A DNA stretch of 64,000 bases from Candidatus Multivorans sp. GTDB lineage: Bacteria; Acidobacteriota; Thermoanaerobaculia; Multivoradales; Multivoraceae. The notes under the pieces were generated by a model. It did no database searches, had not been told where the DNA came from, and worked only from the letters and a program-made list of their open reading frames with translations. Location of the stretch: NCBI GenBank assembly GCA_965247095.1, contig OZ251997.1:4384001-4448000 (forward strand), written 5' to 3'. A program made the position numbers and the translations under genes. Positions 5,886 to 58,944 of the stretch are shown piece after piece. Each line of letters begins with the position of its first letter. Within the stretch, counting starts at the first letter, position 1.

Positions 5886-7589
5886 CTATCTCCGCAGCCG
5901 GACGCGCCGGTTGGCCGGCAGGTCGCGCAGCACGAGGGCTTTCTCCGCGGGAGGTTGGCGCACGGTCAGGCGTTCGACCCGTTCCTCGTCCCCGAGTCCG
6001 AAGAAGAGGGTCTGGGTGCTCTGAGACAGGTAGGACGAGCCCGCCCGCACTTCTCGAATCTGCGTCCCTCCACCTGTCGTGAGCACCACTCGGGCGCCGA
6101 TCGTTCCAGGGCCGCTCCCGTTGTGCGAAGAGAAGCCGAACGCAAGCCACCTCCCGGAAGTCCGGTTCTCGTACGTTTCGGATAGCTGGTTCGAGTTGAC
6201 GACCACCACGTCGAGGTCGCCGTCGAGATCGAGGTCGGCGACCGCCGAGCCGCGGCTGGTGCGCACGGCGTCGAGACCGACATCGCGCCGCTCCCGGAAG
6301 CGCCCACCGCCCAGGTTCTCGAACAGTTGGTTGGGTTGCTCGTACGTTCCGACTTCGCCGATACGCGCCGCGTTCGGCTGGATGTGGCCGTTGGCCACGA
6401 ACAGGTCGAGATCACCGTCGAGGTCGGCGTCCAGGGCATTGACACCGAAAGCCAGGCGCTGCAGCGAAGGCTGGGCCAGCCCCGACGGGAAGCGCTGGTC
6501 GAGGAAGACACCGCCGCCGGCGCTGCGGTAGAAGGCGTTCGTCTCGAGCGCGAAGTTGGTCACCACCAGGTCCTGTAGACCGTCGCCGTCGAGGTCGGCC
6601 AGTTCGACCCCCATCCCGGCCTCCGCGTTGCCGCTTCGGTCATAGGCGGCGCCGGAGAGCAGCGACTCGTCCTCGAACCGGCCGCCGCCGAGACCGCGGA
6701 AAAGCAGGTTCGGATCCTTGTCGTTGGCCACGTACAGATCGGGCCAGCGGTCACCGTCGAGATCGCCGATCACCACGCCGAGGCCTGCCTCGGCGACGGT
6801 GTCGAGGCCGCTGGCGGCGGTCGCGTCGACGAAGTACCCGTTGCCGTCGTTGAGGTAGAGGCGGTCCGGCACGCCGTTGTACATGTCGGGGTGGCAGTAG
6901 CCGCGTTCGGGCTTGCCGGTGTCGCCGTCCGACCTCTTGTTTGAGGCGCCAAGGCCGCAGAACTTGTTGTTCGTGACCGAGAAGTCGGTGTAGTTCGCCA
7001 CGTAGAGGTCGAGGTCGCCGTCCAGGTCGATGTCGCCGAAGGCGGCCGAGGCGCTCCAGCGGGGATCGTCGACGCCTCGCTCCGTGCCGGCGGCCCGGAA
7101 GCTGCCGTCGCCCAGGTTCAGAAAGAGCTCGTTGTTGCCGAATGCAGTGACGTAGAGGTCGAAGTCGCCGTCGCCGTCGATGTCGCCCGCGGCGCCGCCG
7201 ATGCCGTAGCCGCCGATGTCGATGCCGGCTGGGCCCGTCACATCGGCGAAACGCGGGGAACCGGCGCCCGTGTCGTTGCGCAACAGCCGGGATCGCGGCG
7301 GCGGACCGTCGTATCCGGGGAGGATCCCGCCGTCGACGAAGAAGACGTCGTCGTCGCCGTCGCCGTCGTAGTCGAAGAGCACGACCCCGCCTGCCATCGT
7401 CTCGACCATGTACATCCGGCCCGAGACTCCGGCGTTGTGCTTGAAGTCGAGTCCCCAGGCAACGCTGACCTCTCGGAAGGTGACTTCGCCGCCGGCAGCG
7501 GAAGTCGCCAGAGCTGCAATGCCGGACAGGCCGGCCGCTGCCAGACGCGCTATGCAGGCGCCCCGCTTGCTTTCGGCCGGCGTGTTCAT
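5886..7589 (-). CDS. CRTAC1-family FG-GAP repeat / ASPIC-UnbV protein
   Basis: Repeated DxDGDGDxDL motifs, YCHP, EAGMG and C-terminal GSSYLSQ...FGLG (ASPIC/UnbV). Confidence 0.9.
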   Translation of the reverse strand: MNTPAESKRGACIARLAAAGLSGIAALATSAAGGEVTFREVSVAWGLDFKHNAGVSGRMYMVETMAGGVVLFDYDGDGDDDVFFVDGGILPGYDGPPPRSRLLRNDTGAGSPRFADVTGPAGIDIGGYGIGGAAGDIDGDGDFDLYVTAFGNNELFLNLGDGSFRAAGTERGVDDPRWSASAAFGDIDLDGDLDLYVANYTDFSVTNNKFCGLGASNKRSDGDTGKPERGYCHPDMYNGVPDRLYLNDGNGYFVDATAASGLDTVAEAGLGVVIGDLDGDRWPDLYVANDKDPNLLFRGLGGGRFEDESLLSGAAYDRSGNAEAGMGVELADLDGDGLQDLVVTNFALETNAFYRSAGGGVFLDQRFPSGLAQPSLQRLAFGVNALDADLDGDLDLFVANGHIQPNAARIGEVGTYEQPNQLFENLGGGRFRERRDVGLDAVRTSRGSAVADLDLDGDLDVVVVNSNQLSETYENRTSGRWLAFGFSSHNGSGPGTIGARVVLTTGGGTQIREVRAGSSYLSQSTQTLFFGLGDEERVERLTVRQPPAEKALVLRDLPANRRVRLRR

Positions 7590-9295
7590 CGGACCACCCG
7601 CACACGCTGCCCGAGCGCCAGTCCCGGCAGCCGCAGGCTGCCCTGCCTGGGCCAGCGAATCCTGAGCTCGACGACTCCGGCGGGCGCCTCGGCATCGCCG
7701 GCCTCGTCTGCGTTGCCGGAGACTGGCACACCGAAGGTCTGGGTCAGCGGATTCTGGGACAGGTAGGACGAGCCGGCCCGGATCTCGCGCCGCTGGTTCC
7801 CGCCCCGCGACCGAAGCTCAAGCAACGCGCCGATTGCACGCCGGTTGGGTGTCCCGGTGTCGAGCAGGTCCACCTGGATCGCCTCGCCTCGAAGGTCGCT
7901 CTCGTTGCGGTAGGCCTCCGCGTGGTCATTGCTGTTCGCGATGACGAGATCGAGATCGCCGTCGAGATCGAAATCGGCGGTGGCCAGCCCGCGGCTGACG
8001 CGAACGGCTGAGATGCCGCTATCCTGGATTTCTACGAACCGGCCGCCGAGGTTCTCGAGGAGTTGGTTGGGCTGCTTGTAGGCCGCGCCGCCGAAACCTT
8101 CGTGTTCGGTGATGTTGTGGATCACGTGGCCGTTCGCGACCGCGAGGTCGAGGTCGCCATCGAGATCGAAGTCGGCCAGGTCGGTTCCGAAACCGACCCA
8201 GGGCATGGACGGTTCGGCGATGCCGGCGATGAACCGTCGCTCGAGGAACAGCCCGTCGCCCCGGTTCGCGTAGAGGGCGTTGGTCTGCCGGTCGAGGTGG
8301 GTGATGATCAGGTCCTCGAAACCGTTGCCGTCGATGTCGCCGACGGCAATGCCCATGCCGGCCTCGGGCTCGCCGCGGTCCGACAGCGCGGTGCCGGCGA
8401 GAAGAGCATCGTCCTCGAAACGAAGACCCTCCGCAGTGGCCCGGTTCAGGAAGTGCAGGTTGGGGTCCATGTCGTTTGCGACGTAGATGTCGGGCCTCCG
8501 GTCGTCGTCGAAGTCCGTGATGACGACGCCCAGGCCGGCGCCGCGAGCTTCACCGAAGCCGAACTCCGCCGTCGCGTCTACGAAGGAGGTCCGGCCCTGT
8601 TCGCGGTAGTCGTTGCGGTAGAAGCGGTCCGGCAGAGGGTCGTAGGCATCCGGGTGGCAGTAGGAGCGGATGCCGCGTTCCGGTTGGCCGCAGAGCTGGT
8701 TGTTGTCGTAGCTGAAGTCGACGTAGTTCGTGACGTAGAGGTCGAGATCGCCGTCCAGATCCACATCGCCGAACGCTGCCGAGGCGCTCCAGGAAGGGTC
8801 GGCGGCGGCGTTGTCCGGCGGTGCGGCACGGAAGGCGCCGTCGCCGTCGTTCAGCCATAGCCGATTCGGCCCGAAGGCGGTCAGGTAGAGATCGGGATCG
8901 CCGTCCCCGTCGACATCGCCGGCCACGGCGCCCATGCCGTAACTGTCGAGGAGGATGCCCGACGGGTCCGTTACGTCGACGAAACGGCCACCTTCGTTGG
9001 CCAGGTCATTGCGCAGCAGGGTCGTCCGGCCAGGCTTGCCGCCGTAGGGCGCTGGCTCGCCGCTGTCCACGAACAGCAGGTCGTCGTCGCCGTCGCCGTC
9101 GTAGTCGAACGCGACCACGCCGCTGCCCACCGTCTCGACCATGTAGTAGTCGCCCCGCCCGCCATGGTGGTGACGGAAATCGATGCCCCAGACTTCGGCG
9201 GCGTCCACGAAACGGAGGGCCCGGTCGCCTGCCGCTTCGTCGGCCGCGGTCATCGCGAGCGCGGCCGCGAGGGTTGGGATCAGGGCGAGAACCAC
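7586..9295 (-). CDS. CRTAC1-family FG-GAP repeat / ASPIC-UnbV protein
   Basis: Same architecture as its neighbour (DYDGDGDDDL, YCHP, EAGMG, GSSYLSQ). 4-nt overlap with the downstream gene. Confidence 0.9.
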   Translation of the reverse strand: MVLALIPTLAAALAMTAADEAAGDRALRFVDAAEVWGIDFRHHHGGRGDYYMVETVGSGVVAFDYDGDGDDDLLFVDSGEPAPYGGKPGRTTLLRNDLANEGGRFVDVTDPSGILLDSYGMGAVAGDVDGDGDPDLYLTAFGPNRLWLNDGDGAFRAAPPDNAAADPSWSASAAFGDVDLDGDLDLYVTNYVDFSYDNNQLCGQPERGIRSYCHPDAYDPLPDRFYRNDYREQGRTSFVDATAEFGFGEARGAGLGVVITDFDDDRRPDIYVANDMDPNLHFLNRATAEGLRFEDDALLAGTALSDRGEPEAGMGIAVGDIDGNGFEDLIITHLDRQTNALYANRGDGLFLERRFIAGIAEPSMPWVGFGTDLADFDLDGDLDLAVANGHVIHNITEHEGFGGAAYKQPNQLLENLGGRFVEIQDSGISAVRVSRGLATADFDLDGDLDLVIANSNDHAEAYRNESDLRGEAIQVDLLDTGTPNRRAIGALLELRSRGGNQRREIRAGSSYLSQNPLTQTFGVPVSGNADEAGDAEAPAGVVELRIRWPRQGSLRLPGLALGQRVRVVR

Positions 9296-48129: not shown

Positions 48130-49047
48130 CTACGCGCAGTTGCAGAGTTCGATGAAGAAGGCGCGGACGGTGTCGATGAACTCGGGGGAGGTCAGGGTGT
48201 TGAGGTGGTTCGCGCCTTCGATGACGTGGAGGCGGTGCTCCTGCATGACGCCGACCAGGGCGTCGGCGTTGGGCTTCAGGGGATCGTCGCTGCCGATGAT
48301 GTTGAGGGTGGGGACCTGGTTGATGCGCAGGAGTTCGGCGCTCAGGTCGAGCGCGGGCATGCCGCGCACCACGGCGGCCAGGGCCAGCGGGTCGTTCGAG
48401 GCGACCATCGCCTGACCGATCGCCTGAACCTGCTCTGATGTCGGCGGTTCGTCCCCGGGCCACAGGAACTCGATCAGCGGACCTCCGCCCTTGCCCGCCT
48501 CGAGCGACGAGGCCAGCGCCCCGTACAGATCGTCGTCGCGCAGTTCGGCGCTCGGCCACCCGGCGCCGCCGACCACCGCGGAGAGCAGCCGATCGGGCGC
48601 CAGGGCGATGAGCTTCATCGTGATGAAACCGCCCATCGAGTAACCGACGACGTTCGCCTGCTGCAGCCTCATGTGGTCGAGCAGATCGACGACATCCAGG
48701 GCCATGCGCTCGCCGTAGTTCGTCGGGTCGTGCGGCTTGTCGCTCTTGCCGTGGCCGCGCTGGTCGACGGCGATGACCTGAAACTCCTCGGCCAGGCGGT
48801 CGATGATGCCGGCGGCGCCCCAATTCGAGGCGGCGGTGCCGGTGATGCCGTGCAGCAGCACCACCGGGTCGCCGCGGCCCTGGACCTGGTAGTGGATGGC
48901 GACGCCGTCGCTGGCCGTGAAGGTCTGGGTTGTCGCCTCGCTCTGGGCGTAGGCGGCGGTGAACGCGGCGAGCGCGAGCAGCGTTGCCAGGACGGCGCGG
49001 CACATCGGCCGGAACATCGGCCGGAGATTCGTCGTACTCGTATTCAT
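48130..49047 (-). CDS. Secreted alpha/beta hydrolase
   Basis: GGAGG RBS, signal peptide, and LLHG, DQRGHG, GYSMGG and GANH motifs. Confidence 0.88.
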   Translation of the reverse strand: MNTSTTNLRPMFRPMCRAVLATLLALAAFTAAYAQSEATTQTFTASDGVAIHYQVQGRGDPVVLLHGITGTAASNWGAAGIIDRLAEEFQVIAVDQRGHGKSDKPHDPTNYGERMALDVVDLLDHMRLQQANVVGYSMGGFITMKLIALAPDRLLSAVVGGAGWPSAELRDDDLYGALASSLEAGKGGGPLIEFLWPGDEPPTSEQVQAIGQAMVASNDPLALAAVVRGMPALDLSAELLRINQVPTLNIIGSDDPLKPNADALVGVMQEHRLHVIEGANHLNTLTSPEFIDTVRAFFIELCNCA

Positions 49048-49154
49048 GGAGGTCCTCCGAGGTTGGCGAAGGCTAGCAAGCCACCGGTGGAAGCGCTCGC
49101 TCCGATAGGCTCGTTTCCGTCGAGCCCCTGTGACCAACGCCGGAGGAGTCGCTG

Positions 49155-49619
49155 ATGAGCGCAACGAACACGGAACAGACGGAGCAGGAGTCGAAGTCCC
49201 GGTCGCTGGTGGACTCGGCCGTGGAGACGGCGCACAAGGTCGCGCTCGCCGGCGTCGGTGTCGCGGGCGAGGCGGCCGATGCGGGGGTCAAGGTCTTCGA
49301 CCGGCTGGTCGAGCGCGGCGAGAAGATCGAGGCGCAGGGGAAGGTGTCTCTCGATGCACTACGGGTCAAGGCCGAGGAGCGCGTCGGGCAGGTGCGCACC
49401 GTGGCCGGAGAGCGGTTCGAGAAGACCCGGGCCCGGGCCAGGTCCGGGATTGACGAGCAGTTGGAGCGCCGGCTGGAGAAGATCGGGGTGCCCGGCAAGG
49501 CTGACTTCCAAGCGGTGGTCGAGCGGCTGAGCGCGATCGAGGCGCGCCTCGAGGCGCTGGAGAAGAAGCCGAAGCCGCGGCGGCGGACGGCGAAGAAGGC
49601 GCCGGCGAAGGCCGAGTAG
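49155..49619 (+). CDS. Phasin / poly-granule-associated protein (PhaF/PhaI-like)
   Basis: LAGVG...FDRLVERGE...IGVP, a coiled coil and a K/A-rich tail. Confidence 0.75.
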   Translation: MSATNTEQTEQESKSRSLVDSAVETAHKVALAGVGVAGEAADAGVKVFDRLVERGEKIEAQGKVSLDALRVKAEERVGQVRTVAGERFEKTRARARSGIDEQLERRLEKIGVPGKADFQAVVERLSAIEARLEALEKKPKPRRRTAKKAPAKAE

Positions 49620-49691
49620 CCGGTCCGTCTTCGATCTCAGCGTCCACTCAGGTTGACGCTGCACACTCAAAGCTCGCTTCGAGGAGGCTGA

Positions 49692-50351
49692 GTGACGATG
49701 AAGACAGTGAGGAGTTCCCGGGCTTGGATTCCGGCAATGCTGATCGTAGTGTGGTCTCACGCGGCCCCGGGCCTGGCAGAAGACGGCAGGTTCGATCTGG
49801 GCTTCCGTACGGACATTGGTCTGGGTACCGGCCATCCTTCCAACGACATTCCGGGGTACAGCCTGTTCGGTCACTACGGGCTCAACGAGCGCTGGAACAT
49901 CGGCTTCGGCCTGGATCACTCGCCGGCATTCGACTTTGAACGAACACCCGGCGTTCTGGGACTGGAGACGCCGGAAGTGATCGACGCCAAGGGTGCGTCC
50001 ACGACGTTCTCAGGCTGGCTGGAACGCGTCTACGCGCGCCCTGAAGGTCGCATCGAGTGGTTCTGGAATGTCGGCCTGGGGTTCAGTTCGGTCGACATGA
50101 AGGACGTGGCGGGACCCGTAGTGGGAGGAGGCGCCTTCGACATCGCGACAGACGCCGGAAGCGAGTTTCTGGCCATGGTCGGCGTGGGTGTGAGGTTCTG
50201 GTTCGGCGACAGTTGGGGGTTCGAGTTCGCGATTCACCATGATCGGCATTTTGCGGACTGGAAGCTGACGGATCGAGTCTCAGGCAGGACCGGAACGGTC
50301 TCCGACTACGAAGTGAACACGATCAACGTAGGTTTCCTGAAGAGGTTCTGA
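49692..50351 (+). CDS. Outer-membrane beta-barrel protein (hypothetical)
   Basis: Signal peptide, alternating Gly/aromatic beta-strands and a C-terminal Phe (GFLKRF). Confidence 0.65.
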   Translation: MTMKTVRSSRAWIPAMLIVVWSHAAPGLAEDGRFDLGFRTDIGLGTGHPSNDIPGYSLFGHYGLNERWNIGFGLDHSPAFDFERTPGVLGLETPEVIDAKGASTTFSGWLERVYARPEGRIEWFWNVGLGFSSVDMKDVAGPVVGGGAFDIATDAGSEFLAMVGVGVRFWFGDSWGFEFAIHHDRHFADWKLTDRVSGRTGTVSDYEVNTINVGFLKRF

Positions 50352-50388
50352 ACCCGGGCTCTTGGGGCCACGCGGACGACCTGCCGGG

Positions 50389-53028
50389 TTAGGTCGTCCG
50401 ATGGCGGGCCCTTCGCGGGCTTCGCAGCGCGCGGACGAACTCGCGCACGGTCGCCGGTCGGGCGCCGGCCCGAATCCGTTCCTCCGCCAGGTCGAACGCC
50501 ATCTTCCACTGCCGGCGCAGAATGCCGTGGGCGGCGAAGAATCCATAGCGGCGGTCGTACATGTGGGTGGCCTCCGAAGTGACGCCGTTCACTTCGAGTA
50601 CGCGGATGCCCTCGCCGCGCTGGAGCGCTTCGCCGCTCGGGACCCGTACGTCGAAGCGGCCGAAGTCGAAGCCGTCGTAGGCGGTGCTGATCGCGTTCAT
50701 CGCCTGTTCGAGTTCCTGAGTGTGGAGGTGGTTCGCGTCGAGGAAGATCGTGCCGCGGGAGTGCGCGCCGACCTCGGTCAGTTCGACGATTTCGCCGGCT
50801 GCCGGCGTTCGCGTCGCGGCATCGGGATGCTCCTTCGCGTAGATGGGTGCGATCGCAACGGCGCGGCGGTCCAGGAGGATCAGCCGCTCCAGGGTGCTCC
50901 GGCCGTCGCCGGTCACGGTCGGCCGCAACTTGTGGGTGATCGAGAAAACGTGCCCGTCCGACCGGCCGGGATGCCGGGCCCAGAAGACGCCGTACTCCTC
51001 GCCCGCGACGTACTCCTGTACGAGTGCCGGTCCGGGCGTCGCCTCGAAGAACCCGGCCGCGTCGGCTTCTGAGTGCGCTACGGCGATGCCGCGTCCCCGC
51101 TCGCCGGTGTCGGGCTTGAGGACGGCGGGGTAGTCCAGGTCTTGGTCCGCCAGGAACCGCCGGAGCGCGTGGAATCGCTCCTCGCTGTCTCCCGGCGCTA
51201 GCCGCCGCCAGACCGGCAGGGCGTCGCCAATGCCGGCCAGGCCGTCCAGGATGTCGCTCTTCGACTCCCCGAGCAGGCCGCCCAGGGGCATGGCCGGGTT
51301 GATCGCGGTGAAGAAGGCAGGTCGGCCGCGGCGCAGGCCCTGCCACAGGATGAAGAGAGCCAGGGGCGGGTAGAAGGCCCACATGGGCCAGAACTCCCAG
51401 TGCCGGATTCGCAGCAACCGGCCGCGCCAGAGCCGGCGGCCGCGCCAGGTGAGGAGCGGCAGGACGAACGTGCGCACGCCGAAGATCAGGAGCGCCAGCG
51501 CCAGCGCCGCCGCGAGCAGGCCGCCGGGCAGGCGGCCGCCGAACCGCTCGACGGCCTCGCGGCCCAGCAGCGCGTTCATGCCCACGAACGCGGGCGTCCA
51601 GATCGCCACGGCCAGGGCGAAGTACATGCAGAAGCGGAGCAGGCTGGTGCGCAGGATGCCGGCGGCGAGGCAGGTCGGCAGCCGCGAACCGGGCAGGAAG
51701 CGGCTGATCAGGACGACCACCAGGGCACGTCGCCGCAGCCATGCGGAGGCCTCCTCGATCGCGGCCTCGCTGACCCACCACTTGAACGGCGGCAGCTTGA
51801 GCGCGGGCCGCCCGAGGATCCGGGCCAGCCAGGCGAGTCCCAGGTCGCTGCTCAGGATGCCGATGTAGCAGGCGGCTACGGCGACGGGGAAGTCGAGCCG
51901 TCCCTGGGCGATGAGCAGACCGGCCGTGATGCAGGTCAGATCCTCACTCAGATAGGCGGCGAACACGAGGAGCAGGAAGACGATGAGCAGGGCCGGGCCG
52001 GTGAACGGCGGCAGGTCCGTGTCGTCGAACGGCATCGCTGCCCGCCGCAGTCGCTCCGGTTCGGCGTCGGCGCGTGTCGGCGCCTCGCCGGCTTCGACGC
52101 GGCCGAGGAACTCCTCGATTCGTTCCGCCAAGTCGTCGCCGCCCCGGAACAGGAAGAAGTGACTGTCGGGGCGCATCCACAGCTCGCTGTGGGGCACGAT
52201 GCGGTGGTGTTCCAGGGCCGCCGCGGCCGGCACCAGCGGATCCTGTTCGCCGTGGACGATGAACACCGGCGCTTCGAGCGCCTCGAGGATCCCGCGCATC
52301 GGGCGCTGGTCCGTGTCGTAGAAGTTGCGGGCGTAGGAGCGGGCGACCGGACTGTCGAAGGCGCCGAAGTGCGGGACCAGATTGCGCAGTCCCCAGAACA
52401 GGCCGAGCTGGAGACCGTGCAGGCCGTGGTTCACGGTGTAGTCGCCGAGCAGTTCGAGTTCCTGGACGCCGATCGAGGCGACGAGAACGAGCGACGCCAC
52501 CCGATCGGGGGAGTCGTCCGCCATGTGCAGTGCCGGGCCGCCGCCCATGCTGAAGCCGAGGGCATGGAAACGTTCGACTCCCAACTCGTCGAGCAGGACG
52601 ACAGCCGCTTCGGCGTGGGCGCGGATCGAGTAGTCGTTCACCCTGCGCTCGGAGGCGCCGAAGCCGGGAAGGTCGGGGGCGAGGACGCGGCGCCGTTCCG
52701 CGAGCCGGGGCGCCAGACGCCGGAAATCGTCCGCGCTGCCAGGTGAACCGTGGAGAAGTACGAGGGGCAGGGGCTCGTTCTCCGATTCGGCGCCGGCCGG
52801 CGCCGGCCACTCGCGCCACGCCAACCGGACCGGCCGGGAATCGCTCCCGGGAAGCGGCGCCTCGACGGTTTCTCGGCCCGGCGGCAGCGGCGCCGGGTCG
52901 GCCGTGACGCGCGCCAGAGTCGAGGCCAGCAGCAGCGCGGCGTAGACCCCGAGCAGGACCTTCAGCCAGATCCGGCGTCGTCGCGGGCGCCGATCGTCAG
53001 TCCGCTTCGGGAATGCCGATGGGACCAT
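50389..53028 (-). CDS. Fusion protein: alpha/beta hydrolase + DedA/VTT membrane domain + ATP-grasp-like ligase
   Basis: Hydrolase: HGSPG, DLPGFG, GFSMGG. DedA: SEDLTCITAGLL, SRFLPGSR. ATP-grasp: WEFWP, KPDTGERGRG, QEY, GRFDVR, LEVNG. Confidence 0.82.
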   Translation of the reverse strand: MVPSAFPKRTDDRRPRRRRIWLKVLLGVYAALLLASTLARVTADPAPLPPGRETVEAPLPGSDSRPVRLAWREWPAPAGAESENEPLPLVLLHGSPGSADDFRRLAPRLAERRRVLAPDLPGFGASERRVNDYSIRAHAEAAVVLLDELGVERFHALGFSMGGGPALHMADDSPDRVASLVLVASIGVQELELLGDYTVNHGLHGLQLGLFWGLRNLVPHFGAFDSPVARSYARNFYDTDQRPMRGILEALEAPVFIVHGEQDPLVPAAAALEHHRIVPHSELWMRPDSHFFLFRGGDDLAERIEEFLGRVEAGEAPTRADAEPERLRRAAMPFDDTDLPPFTGPALLIVFLLLVFAAYLSEDLTCITAGLLIAQGRLDFPVAVAACYIGILSSDLGLAWLARILGRPALKLPPFKWWVSEAAIEEASAWLRRRALVVVLISRFLPGSRLPTCLAAGILRTSLLRFCMYFALAVAIWTPAFVGMNALLGREAVERFGGRLPGGLLAAALALALLIFGVRTFVLPLLTWRGRRLWRGRLLRIRHWEFWPMWAFYPPLALFILWQGLRRGRPAFFTAINPAMPLGGLLGESKSDILDGLAGIGDALPVWRRLAPGDSEERFHALRRFLADQDLDYPAVLKPDTGERGRGIAVAHSEADAAGFFEATPGPALVQEYVAGEEYGVFWARHPGRSDGHVFSITHKLRPTVTGDGRSTLERLILLDRRAVAIAPIYAKEHPDAATRTPAAGEIVELTEVGAHSRGTIFLDANHLHTQELEQAMNAISTAYDGFDFGRFDVRVPSGEALQRGEGIRVLEVNGVTSEATHMYDRRYGFFAAHGILRRQWKMAFDLAEERIRAGARPATVREFVRALRSPRRARHRTT

Positions 53029-53845
53029 GAACGTCGCCGAGTGCCGCCAGTTCTTCGTTCGAGACCATCGGCCGGAAGCTACCTTCCATCGTCTCCCGCA
53101 GTTGGCGGGCCAGCACCTTCCGATCCGCGCTCTGGAGCGGCTCGTTGCCGAAGGCCACTTCCGCTTCGATGCGGCGAAGCTGCAGGAGCTCAGGAGCGTG
53201 GGGGGTCATCGCCATGTAGCCCCACCAGGCGACGCTCAGGAACGCCGGCGTCTCGTCGGGCGGCGTCTCGTAGCGGACGACGGCCCAGTGGACCGGCAGT
53301 TCCTGCCCGGCCGCGGGCGCGAGCAGGGAGGGCTTCAGCGGGGCGATTTCGTTGCCGGGTGTCGACGTGCCTTCCGGGAACAGGATCACCGGGTCGCCCG
53401 CCGCGAGCGCTTCGGCAATCTGTTCGCCAACCTTCGTGACGTCGCGCCGCCGGCCGCGGTCGACGAAGATGGTGTCGGCGGTGCGGCACATGGCGCCGAC
53501 GACCGGCCAGTCCCGGATCTCCGCCTTGGAGACGAAGCGCCCCGGGGCCAGCGCGGAGAGCAGGAAGACGTCGATATAGGAGAGGTGGTTCGAGATCAGC
53601 AGGAAGGGCTCCTTCGGCGGTTCGCCGCGCACCGTGACCCGGCAGCCGAGGATGGCCAGACTGGCGCGTCCCCACCGGCGCAGCACCGAGCGCCGGACGG
53701 CTCGCCAGGCCAGGGGAGCGCGCCGGGCCAGGAAGGGCCGCAGGATGAGTAGCGGGAACCAGGCGGCCAGTGCCGCCAGGAGGACAGCCGGCCCCCGCCA
53801 GATCATCCGCCAGATCCGGAGAGGACTTCTGCTCTTGGGCCGCAT
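52997..53845 (-). CDS. Lyso-lipid O-acyltransferase (PlsC/OlsA-like)
   Basis: SNHLSYID (HX4D), FVSKAE and FPEGT motifs. Confidence 0.9.
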   Translation of the reverse strand: MRPKSRSPLRIWRMIWRGPAVLLAALAAWFPLLILRPFLARRAPLAWRAVRRSVLRRWGRASLAILGCRVTVRGEPPKEPFLLISNHLSYIDVFLLSALAPGRFVSKAEIRDWPVVGAMCRTADTIFVDRGRRRDVTKVGEQIAEALAAGDPVILFPEGTSTPGNEIAPLKPSLLAPAAGQELPVHWAVVRYETPPDETPAFLSVAWWGYMAMTPHAPELLQLRRIEAEVAFGNEPLQSADRKVLARQLRETMEGSFRPMVSNEELAALGDVHGPIGIPEAD

Positions 53846-53847
53846 CC

Positions 53848-54705
53848 TCAGCGCGGCGCTGGCGGCACTTCGGGTGCCGGTGGCGCCTCGTCCAGCCCGA
53901 AGATCAGCCGGGTCCTGCGGCTGAGAGCGGTCGTGTCCATCAGGACCAGGTAGTCGATCGTTTTGAACTCGCGGTCGATCGCGGGGCGGCTGCAGACCAG
54001 GGCGCCGTAGCGCAGGTAGGTGGCGAAGAGGGGCGGGATCTTGATGTCAGGCAGTGCGGCCACGCGATCGTCGGGCGCCTCGCAGAGGGTGTGGGGGAGG
54101 GGAGGTACGTCGAACTCGGGGTGGACCTTGCCCGCCGCCTGCAGTTGCCGGTAGAGCCGGATGCCGGCCGCCTGATCCTGACTGGTCAATGAACAGCAGC
54201 CGAACAGGTAGCGGCACTGGCTGTGGACCAGGTACCGGGCCAGACCCTTCCAGAGCAGGAACAGTACGGTCCGCTTGCGGTGGTTGCGTTGAATGCAGGC
54301 GCGGCCGATCTCGACCGACTGATCGAGAACGCTTCCGGGCAGGACGTCCAGCTCGTACTCACCGGCCGAGTAGAAGCCGCAGCCGCGGGCGGCCATCGCC
54401 GCCGTCTGCATGCGGTAGGTCCCAATGAGGTGGCCGCCCACGTCGTCGACCAGCATGTGGTGGCAACTCGCGTCGAAACGGTCGGTGTCGCGGCCGGTGG
54501 CGAAGGACTCCTCGAGGCCCTCGCCCAGTTCCAGGTTGAAGACCTCGAAGCGCAGCGCAAGGAGCCGGTCGAGGTCCTGGGCGGTGCGCGCGAAACGGAG
54601 CCGGTAGCTGCCGACTTCGATCTCGCCGTCGGGGAGAAGCTCCGGGTTGGGAAGAGTGCCCGGCGGCTCGACAGGTCGGGACGGGAGACTCGCCGACTCG
54701 GTCAT
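53848..54705 (-). CDS. OlsB-like GNAT N-acyl amino-acid synthase
   Basis: LRFEVFNLELG, D.DRFD..C.H, GTYR, EIGRACI, YLFGC.S, P.L...YLR.GA and D.EF.T.D motifs. Confidence 0.88.
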   Translation of the reverse strand: MTESASLPSRPVEPPGTLPNPELLPDGEIEVGSYRLRFARTAQDLDRLLALRFEVFNLELGEGLEESFATGRDTDRFDASCHHMLVDDVGGHLIGTYRMQTAAMAARGCGFYSAGEYELDVLPGSVLDQSVEIGRACIQRNHRKRTVLFLLWKGLARYLVHSQCRYLFGCCSLTSQDQAAGIRLYRQLQAAGKVHPEFDVPPLPHTLCEAPDDRVAALPDIKIPPLFATYLRYGALVCSRPAIDREFKTIDYLVLMDTTALSRRTRLIFGLDEAPPAPEVPPAPR

Positions 54706-55652
54706 GAGCCCGCCCCGGTCGCGGCGCGTATCCACTCGGTAGTGGGCACCGTCAGGAAGAGGCGGTCGTCCTTGCGCCTCAGGATGCCGGAAACCGCGAC
54801 CGGCTGGCCCACCCAGTCGAGCACCTCGGTCCCCATCGGCTGGCCGCGTTCGTCCAACAGATGGACCAGACGGCGTTCGTCGTTCTCCGTTCGGACCAGC
54901 AGTGCCGCCGGGATGCCGCCGCGGATGCAGAGGGAGGCGCAGTCCCGGTGGGGCTTGCCGCGGCCCGGCTTCATGGCGCCGAGGTAGCACTTCGTGTCGA
55001 CGATTTCGCCGACGAGGGTATGGGCGCGCAGGTAGAGGCGGTCGACCTCTGCGCCCGGTGGCGGAACCACTCCAGCCGCCGCGTCTTCGCTCTCACGAGC
55101 GGGGGGCAAGCCACCGGTTCCGAGGCCGCTTGGAGAGTCCGGTTCCGCCGGAGATCCTCCGTCGACGCCTCCTTCGGTGAGTTCCAGGGAATGCACTTCG
55201 AGCATCGCCGCTTCCGGGTTCCGGATCAGCGTGCCGGAGAGCTGGATTTCTCTGGATGGTGCGGCCGACCAAGGCGCGTTGGGAGGCTCATTCGCGTCGA
55301 GCCCGTGCTTTCCTTCCGCGACCAGAAGGTAACCCGCGGCAGGTCCGTCCGCCGTGAGCAGGCGGGGATGGGGATCGATGAGCAGTTCGCCGCTGTAGTC
55401 CCGCAGCGTGCCGTACTCGAACACTCCTTCGTCGAAGCGTTCCAGCAGCAGGGCCAGGCCGGCGCCGAGCGCCGCGGCCAGCAGCAGGAGCCCGATCACG
55501 GCGCGGCGGGCGAACCGGGAGATCCCGGGCGGCGTCTCATCGAGGTAGCCGACGTAGAACTCGGGTGGCGCGACCCGCGCCACCCGTGAACCAGTCCGTG
55601 CGCCCGTCAATCGGGCGCACGGATGGCACTCGTCGCGGCGTTCGCCGGTCAC
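54702..55652 (-). CDS. Conserved hypothetical membrane-anchored protein with a Cys/His motif
   Basis: GTGA overlap with the upstream stop. EFYVGYL, one TM helix, and DTKCYLGAMKPG.GK.HRDCASLCIRGGIP. Carries a 69-nt in-frame repeat insert. Confidence 0.75.
   Translation of the reverse strand: MTGERRDECHPCARLTGARTGSRVARVAPPEFYVGYLDETPPGISRFARRAVIGLLLLAAALGAGLALLLERFDEGVFEYGTLRDYSGELLIDPHPRLLTADGPAAGYLLVAEGKHGLDANEPPNAPWSAAPSREIQLSGTLIRNPEAAMLEVHSLELTEGGVDGGSPAEPDSPSGLGTGGLPPARESEDAAAGVVPPPGAEVDRLYLRAHTLVGEIVDTKCYLGAMKPGRGKPHRDCASLCIRGGIPAALLVRTENDERRLVHLLDERGQPMGTEVLDWVGQPVAVSGILRRKDDRLFLTVPTTEWIRAATGAGS
55562..55629 (+). repeat. REP-like family B double hairpin, inside a CDS
   Basis: CGGGTGGCGCG ACC CGCGCCACCCG TGAACCAG TCCGTGCGCCCG TCAAT CGGGCGCACGGA TGGCAC. 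Confidence 0.88.
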
Positions 55653-56767
55653 GAGGGCTCCTCGGGCGTGTCGGGGGGCGCTGTGCAGTCGTCGTTCCCG
55701 GGCCCCGGATGCGGGCGAGACGCCCGCGGTCCCAGGGCCGGCTCGGCGTGCGTACCCGGCGGGTTCGGCCTCGGGTCGACGAGTACCCGGCCACCCTCGA
55801 CGCGGACGTTGAAGGTCGGGATCGTCTCGGTGAAGGGCGGCGGCGAGCATCCGTCCTCAGGGCGGTACTGGTAGCCGTGCCAGGGGCAGGTGATGCAGCC
55901 GTCGATCACGCGGCCCTCGCCGAGCGGCCCGTTCTGGTGCTGGCAGACGTTCGATACGGCAGCGATCTTCTCGCCGCCATCCGTCCGGTAGCGGAAGACG
56001 GCTACCCGCTCGCCGCTGAGCACGAAGATGCGGGCGCGGTCGAGGGGGATGTCCGAGACCGCGCAGACATCGACCGCGGCGTCATCGGTGGTCGCCGCCG
56101 GGGACGACGCGCGCCCCCGCCAGCCCGCAACCAGGTGCAGCGAGGCGATGCCGACGAACCCCACGCCGAGCAGCCCCGCGAGCTGGGCAGGCCGTTCGGC
56201 CGCCTGCAAACTGCCCAGCGCCACGTGGACGAGGATCAGCCCGTAGGCGACGTAGACCAGCATGTGCAGCGACTTCCACACCGGCGCCGTCAGGTTCGCG
56301 AGCCAGAAGTCGTGCGAGGTCGCCGCCATCAGGAACAGGATGACGAGCGCCGTGAGGCCGAGCGCCTGGAAGGGGAACTGGGTCAGGCTGTCGTAGTTGC
56401 CGTTGCTCGCCAGCACGCTGACCAGGGGATTCAGGACCCCGAGACCGTGGAACTGGACGACAGCGAACCCGCCGTGGGCGGCCGCGAGCAGGAACATGCA
56501 GACGCCGAGGTGGCGGCGGTTGTAGAGCAGGGGCAGGAAGCGCCGGTCGAGCCGGCACAGCGGACCGATGGCGAGCACCACGTGAAGCAGCAGCAGGGCG
56601 CCCGCGCCCAACGCCCGGATGAGCAGGGTCTCGATCGTTGCCTGGGGCCGCGTCGAGATGCCGATGCCGACGAACAGGCCCAGGAAGACCACCACGCCTA
56701 CGGCGACGCCCAAGTCGTAGAGCCTCTTGTTGCGGTTCCAGAGAACCGCCTGGTACCCGGCGCTCAT
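55649..56767 (-). CDS. Ferric-reductase/MsrQ-like heme-b membrane domain fused to a Rieske [2Fe-2S] domain
   Basis: TM helices with NRRHLG..AAHG and WKSLH..HV His pairs; Rieske motif CQHQNGPL...CPWHG. Confidence 0.85.
   Translation of the reverse strand: MSAGYQAVLWNRNKRLYDLGVAVGVVVFLGLFVGIGISTRPQATIETLLIRALGAGALLLLHVVLAIGPLCRLDRRFLPLLYNRRHLGVCMFLLAAAHGGFAVVQFHGLGVLNPLVSVLASNGNYDSLTQFPFQALGLTALVILFLMAATSHDFWLANLTAPVWKSLHMLVYVAYGLILVHVALGSLQAAERPAQLAGLLGVGFVGIASLHLVAGWRGRASSPAATTDDAAVDVCAVSDIPLDRARIFVLSGERVAVFRYRTDGGEKIAAVSNVCQHQNGPLGEGRVIDGCITCPWHGYQYRPEDGCSPPPFTETIPTFNVRVEGGRVLVDPRPNPPGTHAEPALGPRASRPHPGPGNDDCTAPPDTPEEPS
55705..55736 (-). repeat. REP-like family A hairpin in the 3' tail of the Rieske gene
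   Basis: CCTGGGACCGCGGGCGTCTCGCCCGCATCCGG on the minus strand. Confidence 0.8.
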
Positions 56768-56970
56768 GGTTGCGCTTCCGCGTCCGGATCGTCTTCGCTC
56801 GGTTCGGGCGCGTCTGGGGGTTCTACCCAGGGCGCGTCGATGGCGGTGGGCAACTTGTCCACGAGCGGCGGTTCGGGGCGCAAGAGGAGCGCGGCGGTTA
56901 GCAGCCCCGCCACGATCGGGGCCAGCACCGCCCAGACCAGACGGTGACGCCGTCGCAAACCGCGGATCAC
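56764..56970 (-). CDS. Small membrane protein
   Basis: LRRRHRLVWAVLA TM helix; 4-nt overlaps at both ends. Confidence 0.7.
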   Translation of the reverse strand: MIRGLRRRHRLVWAVLAPIVAGLLTAALLLRPEPPLVDKLPTAIDAPWVEPPDAPEPSEDDPDAEAQP

Positions 56971-57245
56971 GGGGAAACCCGCCTCTGCCGACCGGCGGCC
57001 GCGTCACGGTGAGCGTTGCGCTCCGTCGGAGGCTGCCGGCCGGTGAGCCACCTCAGTAGGACCACCGGCCACAACGCGGCAACGCCGGGCAGGATGATGA
57101 GCCGAAAGCCAAGGCCGGTTGCCTTGGCGGCAGGATCGACGCGGCCCACGCCGCGCCAGACGAAGAACGGGGCGAAGGCCAGTCCACAGGCGATGTACAC
57201 GGCGCAGAGCAGCACCACGACCTCGGCGGCGCGCTCGATGGACAT
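56967..57245 (-). CDS. Small two-TM membrane protein
   Basis: Y...G..FA..F...G..RVDPAA...GFRLIILPG..ALWP; first gene of the coupled run. Confidence 0.75.
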   Translation of the reverse strand: MSIERAAEVVVLLCAVYIACGLAFAPFFVWRGVGRVDPAAKATGLGFRLIILPGVAALWPVVLLRWLTGRQPPTERNAHRDAAAGRQRRVSP

Positions 57246-57340
57246 CGCGGGGAGTATACGCGCGCAGCGTGGCGAACCTGCCGTAGACTCCGCACCGGTC
57301 TTGCCTTGGACAAGTCAACCTGGACGTAGAGGAAGAGAAC

Positions 57341-58483
57341 ATGCGGGTACCGTTTCGCTGCACGGCGACGATCCACGGAGGAGGCCTGAGATCGCTGCTG
57401 CTTGCGAGCCTGATGGCGGCACTGGCGTTCCCGGTCCTTGGCCAGGGAGGCACGCAGGACGTGACCGTCGAGGCCTACGAGCCGCGCTCGACGCTGAAGG
57501 TCGCGGGTGGCTCGGTCACGCGGGCGAAGTTCCCCTTCGTCGACGCCCACGCGCACTTGCGCGGCAGCGACCCGGCGCGGATCGACCAGATGGTCCGCGA
57601 GATGGACGAGATGAACATGGCCGTGTTCGTGAACCTGAGCGGCGGCAGCGGAGAGGGACTGAAGGCGAACATCGCCGCCACCAAGGGCCGCTACCCGGGA
57701 CGGTTCGTCGTCTTCGCAAACGTCAACCTCTCGGGATTGGACCAGCCCGGTTGGGGGGAAGAGGCCGCCGCGCAGCTTGAGGCGGATGTTGCGGCCGGCG
57801 CCCAGGGCCTCAAGATCTACAAGAACCTCGGCATGTTCCTGACCGACAGCACCGGCGAGCGGGTGCCGGCCGACGATCCGCGCATCGATCCGGTGTGGGC
57901 CAAGGCGGGCGAGTTGGGCATCCCGGTCCTGATTCACGTCGGTGAACCGTCGCCGTTCTGGGCGCCCTGGGACGAGCACAACGAGCGCTGGCTGGAGCTG
58001 AAGCAGTTTCCGAACCGCCGCCGCGATGACCCCTTGCGCTTCGCCTCGTTCGAGCAGACGATGACCGAACAGCACAACCTGTTCCGCCGTCATCCGGACA
58101 CGATCTTCATCAACGCCCATCTTGGCTGGCTGGGCAACGACCTGGGGCGGCTCGGGGACCTGCTCGACGAACTGCCGAACATGTACACCGAGATCGGCGC
58201 CGTGGTAGCGGAACTCGGCCGCCAGCCGCATACGGCGGCGGCGTTTCTCACCAAGTACCAGGACCGCGTCCTGATGGGCAAGGACGCCTACGCGCCGAGC
58301 GAGTACCACGTCTACTTCCGCGTGCTCGAGACCGCCGACGAGTACTTCGACTACTACCGCAAGCGCCACGCGCACTGGAAGATGTACGGGCTCGACCTGT
58401 CGGACGAGGTGCTCGAGAAGATCTACTTCCGCAACGCGCTGAAGATCATCCCCGGCCTCGACCGGCGCCTGTTCCCGGAGTGA
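57341..58483 (+). CDS. Secreted amidohydrolase (Amidohydro_2 family)
   Basis: DAHAH, GLKIYK, LIHV, NAHLG and DRVLMGKD motifs. Confidence 0.88.
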   Translation: MRVPFRCTATIHGGGLRSLLLASLMAALAFPVLGQGGTQDVTVEAYEPRSTLKVAGGSVTRAKFPFVDAHAHLRGSDPARIDQMVREMDEMNMAVFVNLSGGSGEGLKANIAATKGRYPGRFVVFANVNLSGLDQPGWGEEAAAQLEADVAAGAQGLKIYKNLGMFLTDSTGERVPADDPRIDPVWAKAGELGIPVLIHVGEPSPFWAPWDEHNERWLELKQFPNRRRDDPLRFASFEQTMTEQHNLFRRHPDTIFINAHLGWLGNDLGRLGDLLDELPNMYTEIGAVVAELGRQPHTAAAFLTKYQDRVLMGKDAYAPSEYHVYFRVLETADEYFDYYRKRHAHWKMYGLDLSDEVLEKIYFRNALKIIPGLDRRLFPE

Positions 58484-58944
58484 GTTCCCGGCTGGCCCGG
58501 GGAGAGGCGACCCGGCGCGAGGAGGGCCAGGAGACCCTGCCCGCCCAGGGCCTCTTCCGCGGCCGGACGGTGGCGCGGCGGTTCGAGTCGCCGGACGGCT
58601 TCATCGTCCTGGTGGGGAAGACCGCCGCCGACAACGACGATCTGAGCCTGCGGCTTGCCCGTCCCGCCGACTTCTGGCTGCACGCGCCGTCCGGCGCCGG
58701 GTCGCATGTGCTGGTGCTCAACGACTCTGGCGTCGACCGGCTGCCACGGGCCACGCGGGACTTCGCTGCGGCGCTGGCCGCGCGCTACTCCAAGTCCCGC
58801 GCCGGCGGCAGGGTGGCCGTGCATCTCGCCCGCGGCCGGGACCTGAGCAAGCCGCGCGGGGCGCCGCCCGGACGGGTCGCGCTACGACGGTACGAGAGCG
58901 TCTTCGCCCGCCCGGCGGCCTTCGGCCGGGTCGACGACGCTTGA
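58480..58944 (+). CDS. Stand-alone NFACT RNA-binding (DUF814) protein
   Basis: VGKTAADNDDLS, DFWLHA..GAGSHV, AALAARYS and KPRGAPPG.V motifs. Confidence 0.85.
   Translation: MSSRLARGEATRREEGQETLPAQGLFRGRTVARRFESPDGFIVLVGKTAADNDDLSLRLARPADFWLHAPSGAGSHVLVLNDSGVDRLPRATRDFAAALAARYSKSRAGGRVAVHLARGRDLSKPRGAPPGRVALRRYESVFARPAAFGRVDDA

Follow-up and report, generated by a model that had tools for sequence, protein, structure and literature searches.

A candidate aminolipid operon in an acidobacterium encodes a fusion of an alpha/beta-hydrolase, a DedA membrane domain and an ATP-grasp domain

A stretch of 64,000 nucleotides from Candidatus Multivorans sp. (Acidobacteriota; Thermoanaerobaculia), positions 4,384,001 to 4,448,000 of contig OZ251997.1 and hereafter the window, harbors a tightly packed set of genes that has about an even chance of being the operon by which a modified amino-acid (acyloxyacyl) membrane lipid is made. 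The set encodes an OlsB-type N-acyltransferase, an OlsA-type O-acyltransferase and an 879-amino-acid protein that joins an alpha/beta-hydrolase domain, a DedA (VTT) membrane domain and an ATP-grasp domain (Table 1). This fusion protein probably works in an aminolipid pathway; that its ATP-grasp domain modifies the lipid head group by forming an amide is plausible, with confidence a little short of even. The genome to which the window belongs is 4.6 Mb in size and 99% complete. In many bacteria, amino-acid lipids take the place of phospholipids when phosphate is limiting or the cells are under stress, and some of these lipids affect host immunity. Ornithine lipids are built by OlsB and then OlsA, and related enzyme pairs build the glutamine lipid (GluB/OlsA) and the glycine lipid (GlsB/GlsA). 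The window holds the same two families (PF13444, and PF01553 with the HX4D motif) in adjacent, coupled genes, but the operon also adds the 879-amino-acid hydrolase-DedA-ATP-grasp protein and a membrane redox pair, which are part of no described pathway.

Five co-directional open reading frames lie on the minus strand, at 55649-57007, 54702-55850, 53848-54990, 52997-53845 and 50389-53028. The region has a GC content of 66-72% in a genome of 69%. The olsB-type, olsA-type and fusion genes are considered real genes, and not chance open reading frames of a genome with 69% GC, because their family matches have E-values of 1e-22 to 1e-33 and they have hundreds of homologues. The OlsB-type protein of 285 amino acids is read from an ATG at 54705, inside the frame at 53848-54990. 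An earlier reading of the same DNA from its letters alone (the sequence-only reading) had described three tightly packed genes, and the coordinates of the open reading frames bear this out: 2 nucleotides separate the stop of the olsB-type gene from the start of the olsA-type gene, and the end of the latter overlaps the start of the fusion gene by 32 nucleotides. On the other side, the stop of the upstream frame (54702) and the olsB-type ATG (54705) overlap by 4 nucleotides. The motifs quoted in that reading, namely GFSMGG, WEFWP and HX4D (as NHLSYID), were all found in the translations.

The two acyltransferases are secure as members of their families. The 285-amino-acid protein scores 93.4 bits with PF13444, above the gathering score of 22.4, and the 282-amino-acid protein scores 79.5 bits with PF01553 (cut-off 23) and contains both the HX4D motif (NHLSYID) and an FPEGTS block. 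The best NCBIfam matches are the OlsB and OlsA equivalog models, all of them below cut-off: 126.2 bits against 320 (NF052555) and 124.2 against 350 (NF052554) for the OlsB-type protein, and 145.5 and 133.9 against 300 for the OlsA-type protein. Both proteins thus fall far under the cut-offs for OlsB and OlsA proper. Because these cut-offs are missed, the proteins are called OlsB-type and OlsA-type, and specificity for ornithine should not be assumed. No other PF13444 gene occurs in the genome.

The fusion protein comprises the three domains that had been proposed, as seen in Pfam matches, a profile search of the PDB, an AlphaFold2 (AF2) model searched with Foldseek, and structural alignment with VIA-align. 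The ATP-grasp domain is the one that family models do not recognize. No Pfam or NCBIfam model reaches its cut-off on the C-terminal 339 amino acids; the best Pfam model is PF02655 (15.2 bits against 23.2), the best NCBIfam model is cyanophycin synthetase (29.5 bits against 850), and the weak matches include models of Ddl and of pseudomurein-type ATP-grasp enzymes. A PDB profile search with an alignment of 24 homologues (A1) returned the ATP-grasp domain of GshAB (E 4.2e-7) and cyanophycin synthetase (E 4.6e-7). The AF2 model of the domain has a pLDDT (predicted local distance difference test score) of 83.3, and a Foldseek search with it returned CphA1, GshAB and Ddl at E-values of about 5e-10 (best 4.7e-10, probability 1.00). 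With VIA-align, the model aligns to the G domain of CphA1 over 261 residues (Z 15.5, root-mean-square deviation 4.6), followed by GshAB (Z 14.5), ArgX/LysX (Z 13.8) and RimK, Ddl and VanA at about 13 (VanA 13.2). The profile, Foldseek and VIA-align results thus agree that the C-terminal domain is an ATP-grasp.

Conserved residues point in the same direction. K638, E678, R791, D793, E812 and N814 are invariant across all 35 full-length fusions, and K638, D793, E812 and N814 are also invariant in alignment A1; by analogy with Ddl, we take these four to be the ATP-binding lysine and the Mg-binding set. The domain shares with the CphA1 G domain, GshAB (GshF), LysX/ArgX, RimK and Ddl both the ATP-grasp fold (Z 12-15.5) and the set of Lys, Glu, Arg, Asp, Glu and Asn. 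It differs from them in that identity is 15-20%, in that it is fused to DedA, and in that the usual N-terminal substrate domain of ATP-grasp enzymes is replaced by a hydrophobic, membrane-proximal helix (RHWEFWP...) and an adjacent motif, FTAxNPxxPxGGxxGESK, of which N577, P578, E588 and K590 are invariant in the 35 fusions. Judging by these sequence features, the helix and the motif may form a substrate site at the membrane surface. A reaction between a carboxylate and an amine is favored, since the reaction of each close structural relative is the extension of an alpha-carboxylate by an amine.

The DedA part of the fusion matches PF09335 at 44.6 bits, above the cut-off of 33.9, over residues 368-484. 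E362, D363, D395, R443 and R449 are invariant in all 35 fusions, and residues of this domain may be equivalent to E39, D51, R130 and R136 of YqjA, acidic and basic residues embedded in the membrane that YqjA requires to function. The nearest curated model is that of UptA, the undecaprenyl-phosphate transporter, the cut-off of which is not reached (58.1 bits against 250). The fusion resembles DedA transporters such as UptA and YqjA in having a VTT domain above the Pfam cut-off with invariant acidic and basic residues. It departs from them in that the DedA domain is flanked on both sides by enzymes, and no such DedA is described in the literature searched.

The hydrolase domain matches PF00561 over residues 88-185 (115.3 bits, E 4.8e-33) and PF12697 over residues 89-302. 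Its AF2 model has a pLDDT of 94.5, and Foldseek places it among esterases, HsaD-type C-C hydrolases and perhydrolases (best E 3.8e-17), with a membrane-anchored phospholipase A (6i8w) at rank 49. The triad residues are Ser160, the nucleophile in the GxSxG motif GFSMGG, Asp263 and His290. Across the full-length fusions, the serine is present in 30 of 35 and replaced by glycine in the other five, the aspartate is present in 35 and the histidine in 32. The five glycine variants retain the aspartate and the histidine; their hydrolase domains are possibly inactive and kept for binding.

The topology of the fusion can be predicted from its charge and hydropathy. Seven lysine or arginine residues occur among the first 18 residues and are followed by a hydrophobic segment at residues 19-42, as delineated by a hydropathy script. 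Such an N-terminal segment is present in 57 of 69 proteins of three-domain length, and the net charge before it is positive in 52 of the 57. The hydrolase domain is net acidic, and the stretch from the last DedA helix to the WEFWP helix is rich in arginine. Most simply read, these features would put the hydrolase domain on the outer side of the membrane and the ATP-grasp domain on the inner side, where it has access to ATP.

The assignment of the fusion to an aminolipid pathway is supported by its neighbors in other genomes. Of 151 genomes drawn evenly from the window's phylum, 17 have the ATP-grasp module, called at E ≤ 1e-20, and 33 have PF13444. PF13444 is found in 16 of the 17 carriers of the module, as compared with 17 of the 134 genomes that lack it. 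The two lie within 5 kb on the same contig in 12 of these carriers (G000, G129, G003, G016, G020, G031, G050, G054, G075, G091, G098 and G122), and the acyltransferase gene may be upstream, downstream or on the opposite strand. A second sample, drawn from all phyla, consisted of the best 80 loci, which were analyzed by tblastn, all-against-all clustering of open reading frames and hidden Markov models built from the clusters. Ten of these loci are from close relatives of the window and 70 are outside its clade; 40 of the latter have long flanks, that is, at least 6 kb upstream and at least 3 kb downstream. An OlsB-type gene occurs within 10 kb in 50 of the 80 loci, in 40 of the 70 outside the window's clade and in 23 of the 40 with long flanks. 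An OlsA-type gene occurs in 46 of the 80, and one or the other acyltransferase in 24 of the 40. Among the carriers are Acidobacteriota, Planctomycetota, Gemmatimonadota, Rhodothermota/Balneolota, Pseudomonadota, Verrucomicrobiota, Thermodesulfobacteriota and KSB1, and the linkage itself recurs in Verrucomicrobiota, Planctomycetota, Gemmatimonadota, Rhodothermota and Pseudomonadota. Linkage of homologous fusions to olsB and olsA elsewhere, on which the sequence-only reading had staked its proposal, is thus observed in most carriers of the phylum sample and in several phyla. The linkage is strong, but it is not universal.

The ATP-grasp family is large and occurs in many phyla. A HMMER pass over 1.84 billion representatives gave 2541 clusters (at 50% identity) at E ≤ 0.001 and 1011 at E ≤ 1e-30. 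Among the best 150 representatives, 68 are at least 780 amino acids long and belong to the three-domain class, 58 are 480-779 amino acids long and are mostly DedA plus ATP-grasp, and the remaining 24 are shorter and are either the helix with ATP-grasp or fragments. The family thus exists in fused and split forms: three-domain proteins, DedA-ATP-grasp proteins, and a stand-alone ATP-grasp beside a separate DedA gene. In two Terriglobia loci (L038 and L080) the DedA gene is separate, and a TANGO2-like gene lies between it and the stand-alone ATP-grasp gene. This pattern of fusion and fission suggests that the domains act together. The names among the matches listed are 'hypothetical protein', 'VTT domain-containing protein', 'DedA' or 'RimK-like ATP-grasp'; the members of 10 matched clusters are all 'hypothetical protein', the labels in a protein atlas are generic (ATP-grasp, RimK or Ddl family), and 9 of 120 listed homologues have a precomputed match to PF08443.

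A pathway can be proposed in which the three genes act in succession. On the basis of the families to which they belong, the OlsB-type enzyme would N-acylate an amino acid with a 3-hydroxy fatty acid and the OlsA-type enzyme would attach a second, ester-linked fatty acid, the product being an acyloxyacyl amino-acid lipid whose alpha-carboxyl is free. At the inner membrane, the 879-amino-acid protein would next act on this lipid. Its ATP-grasp domain, which would lie in the cytoplasm and be kept at the membrane by the WEFWP helix and the interfacial motif, would phosphorylate a carboxylate to an acyl phosphate and join it to an amine. Most likely the alpha-carboxyl of the head group would be activated and an amino acid or amine added, so that the head group would become amidated or of dipeptide type; the opposite polarity, in which the carboxylate of an amino acid is joined to an amine of the head group, is possible. 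The DedA domain would provide a path for the lipid in or across the bilayer, and the exported serine-hydrolase domain would act at the outer leaflet or periplasmic side, where it would trim the product or re-acylate it. We infer the amide ligation, the flipping by DedA and the remodeling by the hydrolase, all of which are chemically well precedented. The order in which flipping precedes hydrolysis is tentative and should be regarded as doubtful.

The reaction proposed for the ATP-grasp domain has a counterpart in the literature. According to a 2026 review (PMC12971839), the formation of cerilipin in Gluconobacter cerinus involves the ATP-dependent transfer of taurine to the carboxyl of ornithine lipid by an enzyme that was assayed and has no assigned gene; Ser-Gly and Orn-Ser-Gly head groups exist, with glycine lipid as an intermediate of the Ser-Gly lipid; and the enzymes for these extensions, whether by taurine or to Ser-Gly and Orn-Ser-Gly, are without assigned genes. 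The likeness is one of reaction type, an ATP-dependent amide on a head-group carboxyl, since the cerilipin enzyme has no sequence with which the ATP-grasp domain could be compared.

Several observations weigh against an aminolipid operon as described. The ATP-grasp domain, as far as sequence models go, is under every Pfam and NCBIfam cut-off, and with the equivalog cut-offs missed for both acyltransferases even the first lipid is undefined. The topology has hydropathy and a charge script as its sole basis, and the replacement of the catalytic serine by glycine in five of 35 fusions suggests that hydrolase activity is dispensable in some lineages. Five of the 17 carriers in the phylum sample lack an adjacent PF13444 gene, which is on another contig in G015, G048 and G096, 30 kb away in G132 and absent in G067. 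Conversely, 17 of the 33 genomes with PF13444 are without the ATP-grasp module. Neither OlsB nor OlsA is encoded in 16 of the 40 long-flank loci, mostly from Opitutales and other Verrucomicrobiota, with some from Terriglobia and Desulfobacteraceae. The sampled genomes are also related to one another, so the counts overstate independence. Finally, two genes that often accompany the module elsewhere, encoding a DinB-like and a TANGO2-like protein, are both absent from the window's genome, and the pathway in the window's clade may be a reduced version.

An alternative explanation is suggested by the bacterial systems that add amino acids to membrane lipids. MprF and a periplasmic hydrolase partner (AcvB, PA0919) combine cytoplasmic synthesis of an amino-acid lipid, a membrane translocation domain and turnover by a periplasmic serine hydrolase. 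The fusion could serve a similar homeostasis, in which an amino acid is added to another membrane lipid, for example as a VanA-style ester on a phospholipid hydroxyl, flipped by DedA and removed by the periplasmic hydrolase to tune surface charge; olsB and olsA would then be neighbors through a shared envelope stress. The layout fits, with a ligase inside, a transporter in the membrane and a hydrolase outside; the structural match to VanA, a D-Ala-D-lactate ligase (Z 13.2), indicates that an ester product is chemically possible; and the long-flank loci that hold a fusion and neither acyltransferase (16 of 40) are in keeping with it. However, the presence of PF13444 in 16 of 17 carriers, within 5 kb in 12 of them, is far above the usual effect of co-regulation, and the adjacency survives rearrangement. 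Moreover, the fusion has no MprF domains: neither the synthase nor the flippase domain is among the six Pfam families that it matches at E ≤ 0.01. The resemblance to MprF/AcvB is one of logic only, as synthesis is aminoacyl-tRNA-dependent there and would use an ATP-grasp here, where three activities are combined in one polypeptide. Such a role for the fusion is considered improbable.

It is also conceivable, and rather less to be expected, that the hydrolase domain is an acyltransferase that transfers the second fatty acid or re-acylates the lipid, making the fusion a second route of synthesis or transacylation. The precedent is OlsI, which is an O-acyltransferase of the alpha/beta-hydrolase superfamily in the synthesis of ornithine lipid in Singulisphaera, a planctomycete with a GH3-type pathway, as shown in a 2025 paper (PMC12493201). 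In five loci (L022, L028, L043, L074 and L080) OlsB is encoded beside the fusion without OlsA, and four of the five fusions have the hydrolase domain. That proportion is no enrichment, as 43 of 57 loci have the domain anyway. The window possesses its own OlsA-type gene, the structural neighbors of the domain are esterases and C-C hydrolases, and the domain is probably exported, which would place it away from acyl-acyl carrier protein (acyl-ACP).

The ATP-grasp domain could instead act before acylation, by making the substrate of the head group, such as a dipeptide for OlsB, or it could activate a fatty acid as an acyl phosphate. L-amino-acid ligases and an acyl-histidine ATP-grasp enzyme of Legionella, the latter cited in PMC11631085, are precedents, but it is not evident why an enzyme of soluble substrates should require a membrane helix, an interfacial motif that is invariant and fusion to DedA, and OlsB-type enzymes already use acyl-ACP; the idea is very improbable. 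Least probable is that the fusion serves an envelope pathway with a polyprenyl-phosphate carrier, such as the decoration of a carrier-linked glycan with amino acids, and has no direct part in aminolipid chemistry, since the UptA model that suggests it (58.1 bits, together with the weak matches to Ddl and pseudomurein-type ATP-grasp models) is far under its cut-off of 250, and the neighbor families that recur are OlsB, OlsA, DinB-like and TANGO2-like, with no recurrent glycan or peptidoglycan genes.

With modification of an aminolipid as the preferred reading, the operon is made up of proteins from known families, and the proposed chemistry, too, belongs to a known type; what would be new is how they are combined and their application to aminolipids. 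A literature search, with subscription journals and supplements outside its reach, found no paper on this protein or operon, and in keeping with the earlier statement no characterized system with this architecture turned up. We know of no described route by which aminolipids cross the inner membrane, and to our knowledge the substrates of DedA proteins are mostly unsettled. The operon is one testable candidate for both the extension of aminolipid head groups and the crossing of the inner membrane. A wider proposal, which must be considered speculative and unlikely as a whole, is that the WEFWP-type membrane ATP-grasp family comprises the missing ATP-dependent ligases of aminolipid head groups (taurine-ornithine, dipeptide and tripeptide lipids), that the fusion is the first DedA physically joined to the enzymes that form and break down its lipid cargo, and that its product here is an undescribed lipid derived from the sole OlsB-type enzyme and possibly altered by the haem/Rieske module. 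If true, the fusion of DedA to a ligase and a hydrolase would name a DedA substrate directly. The module is also a handle on DedA proteins and, in other lineages, on the bacterial relatives of TANGO2 and on the DinB-like protein.

Table 1. Genes of the candidate aminolipid operon and regions of the fusion protein, by position in the window
Feature	Position	Strand	Basis
OlsB-type N-acyltransferase, 285 amino acids	53848..54705	-	PF13444
OlsA-type lyso-aminolipid O-acyltransferase, 282 amino acids	52997..53845	-	PF01553, HX4D, FPEGT
879-amino-acid fusion: putative signal-anchor, alpha/beta-hydrolase, DedA/VTT, membrane-proximal helix, ATP-grasp	50389..53028	-	
Fusion: putative N-in signal-anchor, residues 19-42	52903..52974	-	hydropathy script
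Fusion: alpha/beta-hydrolase domain, residues 88-302	52123..52767	-	PF00561, AF2, Foldseek
Fusion: DedA/VTT membrane domain, approximately residues 345-528	51445..51996	-	PF09335
Fusion: membrane-proximal helix (RHWEFWP...), FTAxNPxxPxGGxxGESK motif and ATP-grasp, residues 541-879 and stop codon	50389..51408	-	
Cys-rich anchored open reading frame, no family match	54702..55850	-	tblastn conservation near module
Ferric-reductase-like haem membrane domain and Rieske [2Fe-2S] fusion	55649..57007	-	PF01794, PF00355

The sequence-only reading had described a system of three genes. The packed trio stands, but the module is usually larger, with a redox pair in the window and DinB-like and TANGO2-like genes in most other lineages. 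One member of the redox pair (55649-57007) matches PF01794 (E 1e-12) and PF00355 (E 7e-15), and by tblastn 22 of the 70 loci outside the window's clade have a homologue of it close to the ATP-grasp gene. The other is an open reading frame with a hydrophobic anchor and a Cys-rich C-terminal part, the true start of which is probably inside the listed frame; by the same method, 28 of the 70 loci have a homologue of it next to the module. Homologues of the pair vary in order and orientation, and some lie on the opposite side of the module or on the opposite strand. The redox pair probably belongs to the same functional unit here, with the gene at 55649-57007 as the operon head. The pair (54702-57245, minus strand) is coupled to the olsB-type gene and has no obvious function in an aminolipid operon.

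Outside the window's clade, 50 of the 70 loci have, immediately upstream of the fusion, a gene for a protein of about 180 amino acids of the DinB superfamily. Thirteen of 14 members match PF12867 (best E 1e-9), and the motifs HxRHxLDHY and SHTIHHYA are conserved. A TANGO2-like protein of about 250 amino acids (PF05742, E 2.4e-8 for a representative) is encoded in 32 of the 70; examples of these DinB-like and TANGO2-like partners are at 7999-8592 in locus L046 and 7578-8420 in locus L051. Among 57 loci examined, the TANGO2-like gene occurs in 13 of the 14 without a hydrolase domain versus 17 of the 43 with one. This distribution no more than hints that the hydrolase domain and the TANGO2-like gene might substitute for each other.

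The genes that flank the module are unrelated to it. One flank consists of leucyl-tRNA synthetase, a second alpha/beta-hydrolase and a convergent gene for an outer-membrane beta-barrel (49692-50351), and the other has an amidohydrolase on the opposite strand. The second alpha/beta-hydrolase gene (48130-49164, minus strand; PF00561, E 1.9e-28), immediately past the beta-barrel gene, was considered as a part of the module and dropped, since its synteny does not extend beyond the window's own clade. A scan of 49000-58600 for promoters and terminators detected no promoter-like site and one terminator-like site, which is on the wrong strand and under the mean for shuffled sequence; it was of no help in placing the ends of the operon.

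A quick tree of 78 OlsB rows, which omits six weak PF13444 matches (G144, G028, G051, G055, G128 and G140) and contains no characterized OlsB, GlsB or GluB, so that it cannot assign a head group, resolves two clades. One comprises 66 short OlsB-type rows (SH-aLRT branch support 100), among which is the protein of the window; the other comprises 12 OlsF-like rows on a long branch. The phylum sample contributes 19 rows to the short clade, of which 11 are beside the module, two are from genomes with the module elsewhere, five are from genomes without it and one is a second copy. The unlinked rows are nested among the linked ones, which looks like loss or relocation. In some loci a fused OlsF-like partner of 610-750 amino acids, directly downstream of the fusion, replaces the separate OlsB and OlsA. 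These loci are from some Verrucomicrobiota, Desulfobacteraceae and one acidobacterial genome, and examples include L053 (4827-6665) and L079 (11024-12889), with proteins of about 620 amino acids in both, and L110. A module of Gram-negative type is also borne by seven contigs labelled Heliomicrobium or Heliobacteriaceae, of the Bacillota (L016, L030, L033, L037, L052, L055 and L081). The OlsB-type genes of these contigs group with those of Blastocatellia (Acidobacteriota) in the tree, and the labels have the look of mis-binned or mis-named metagenome bins.

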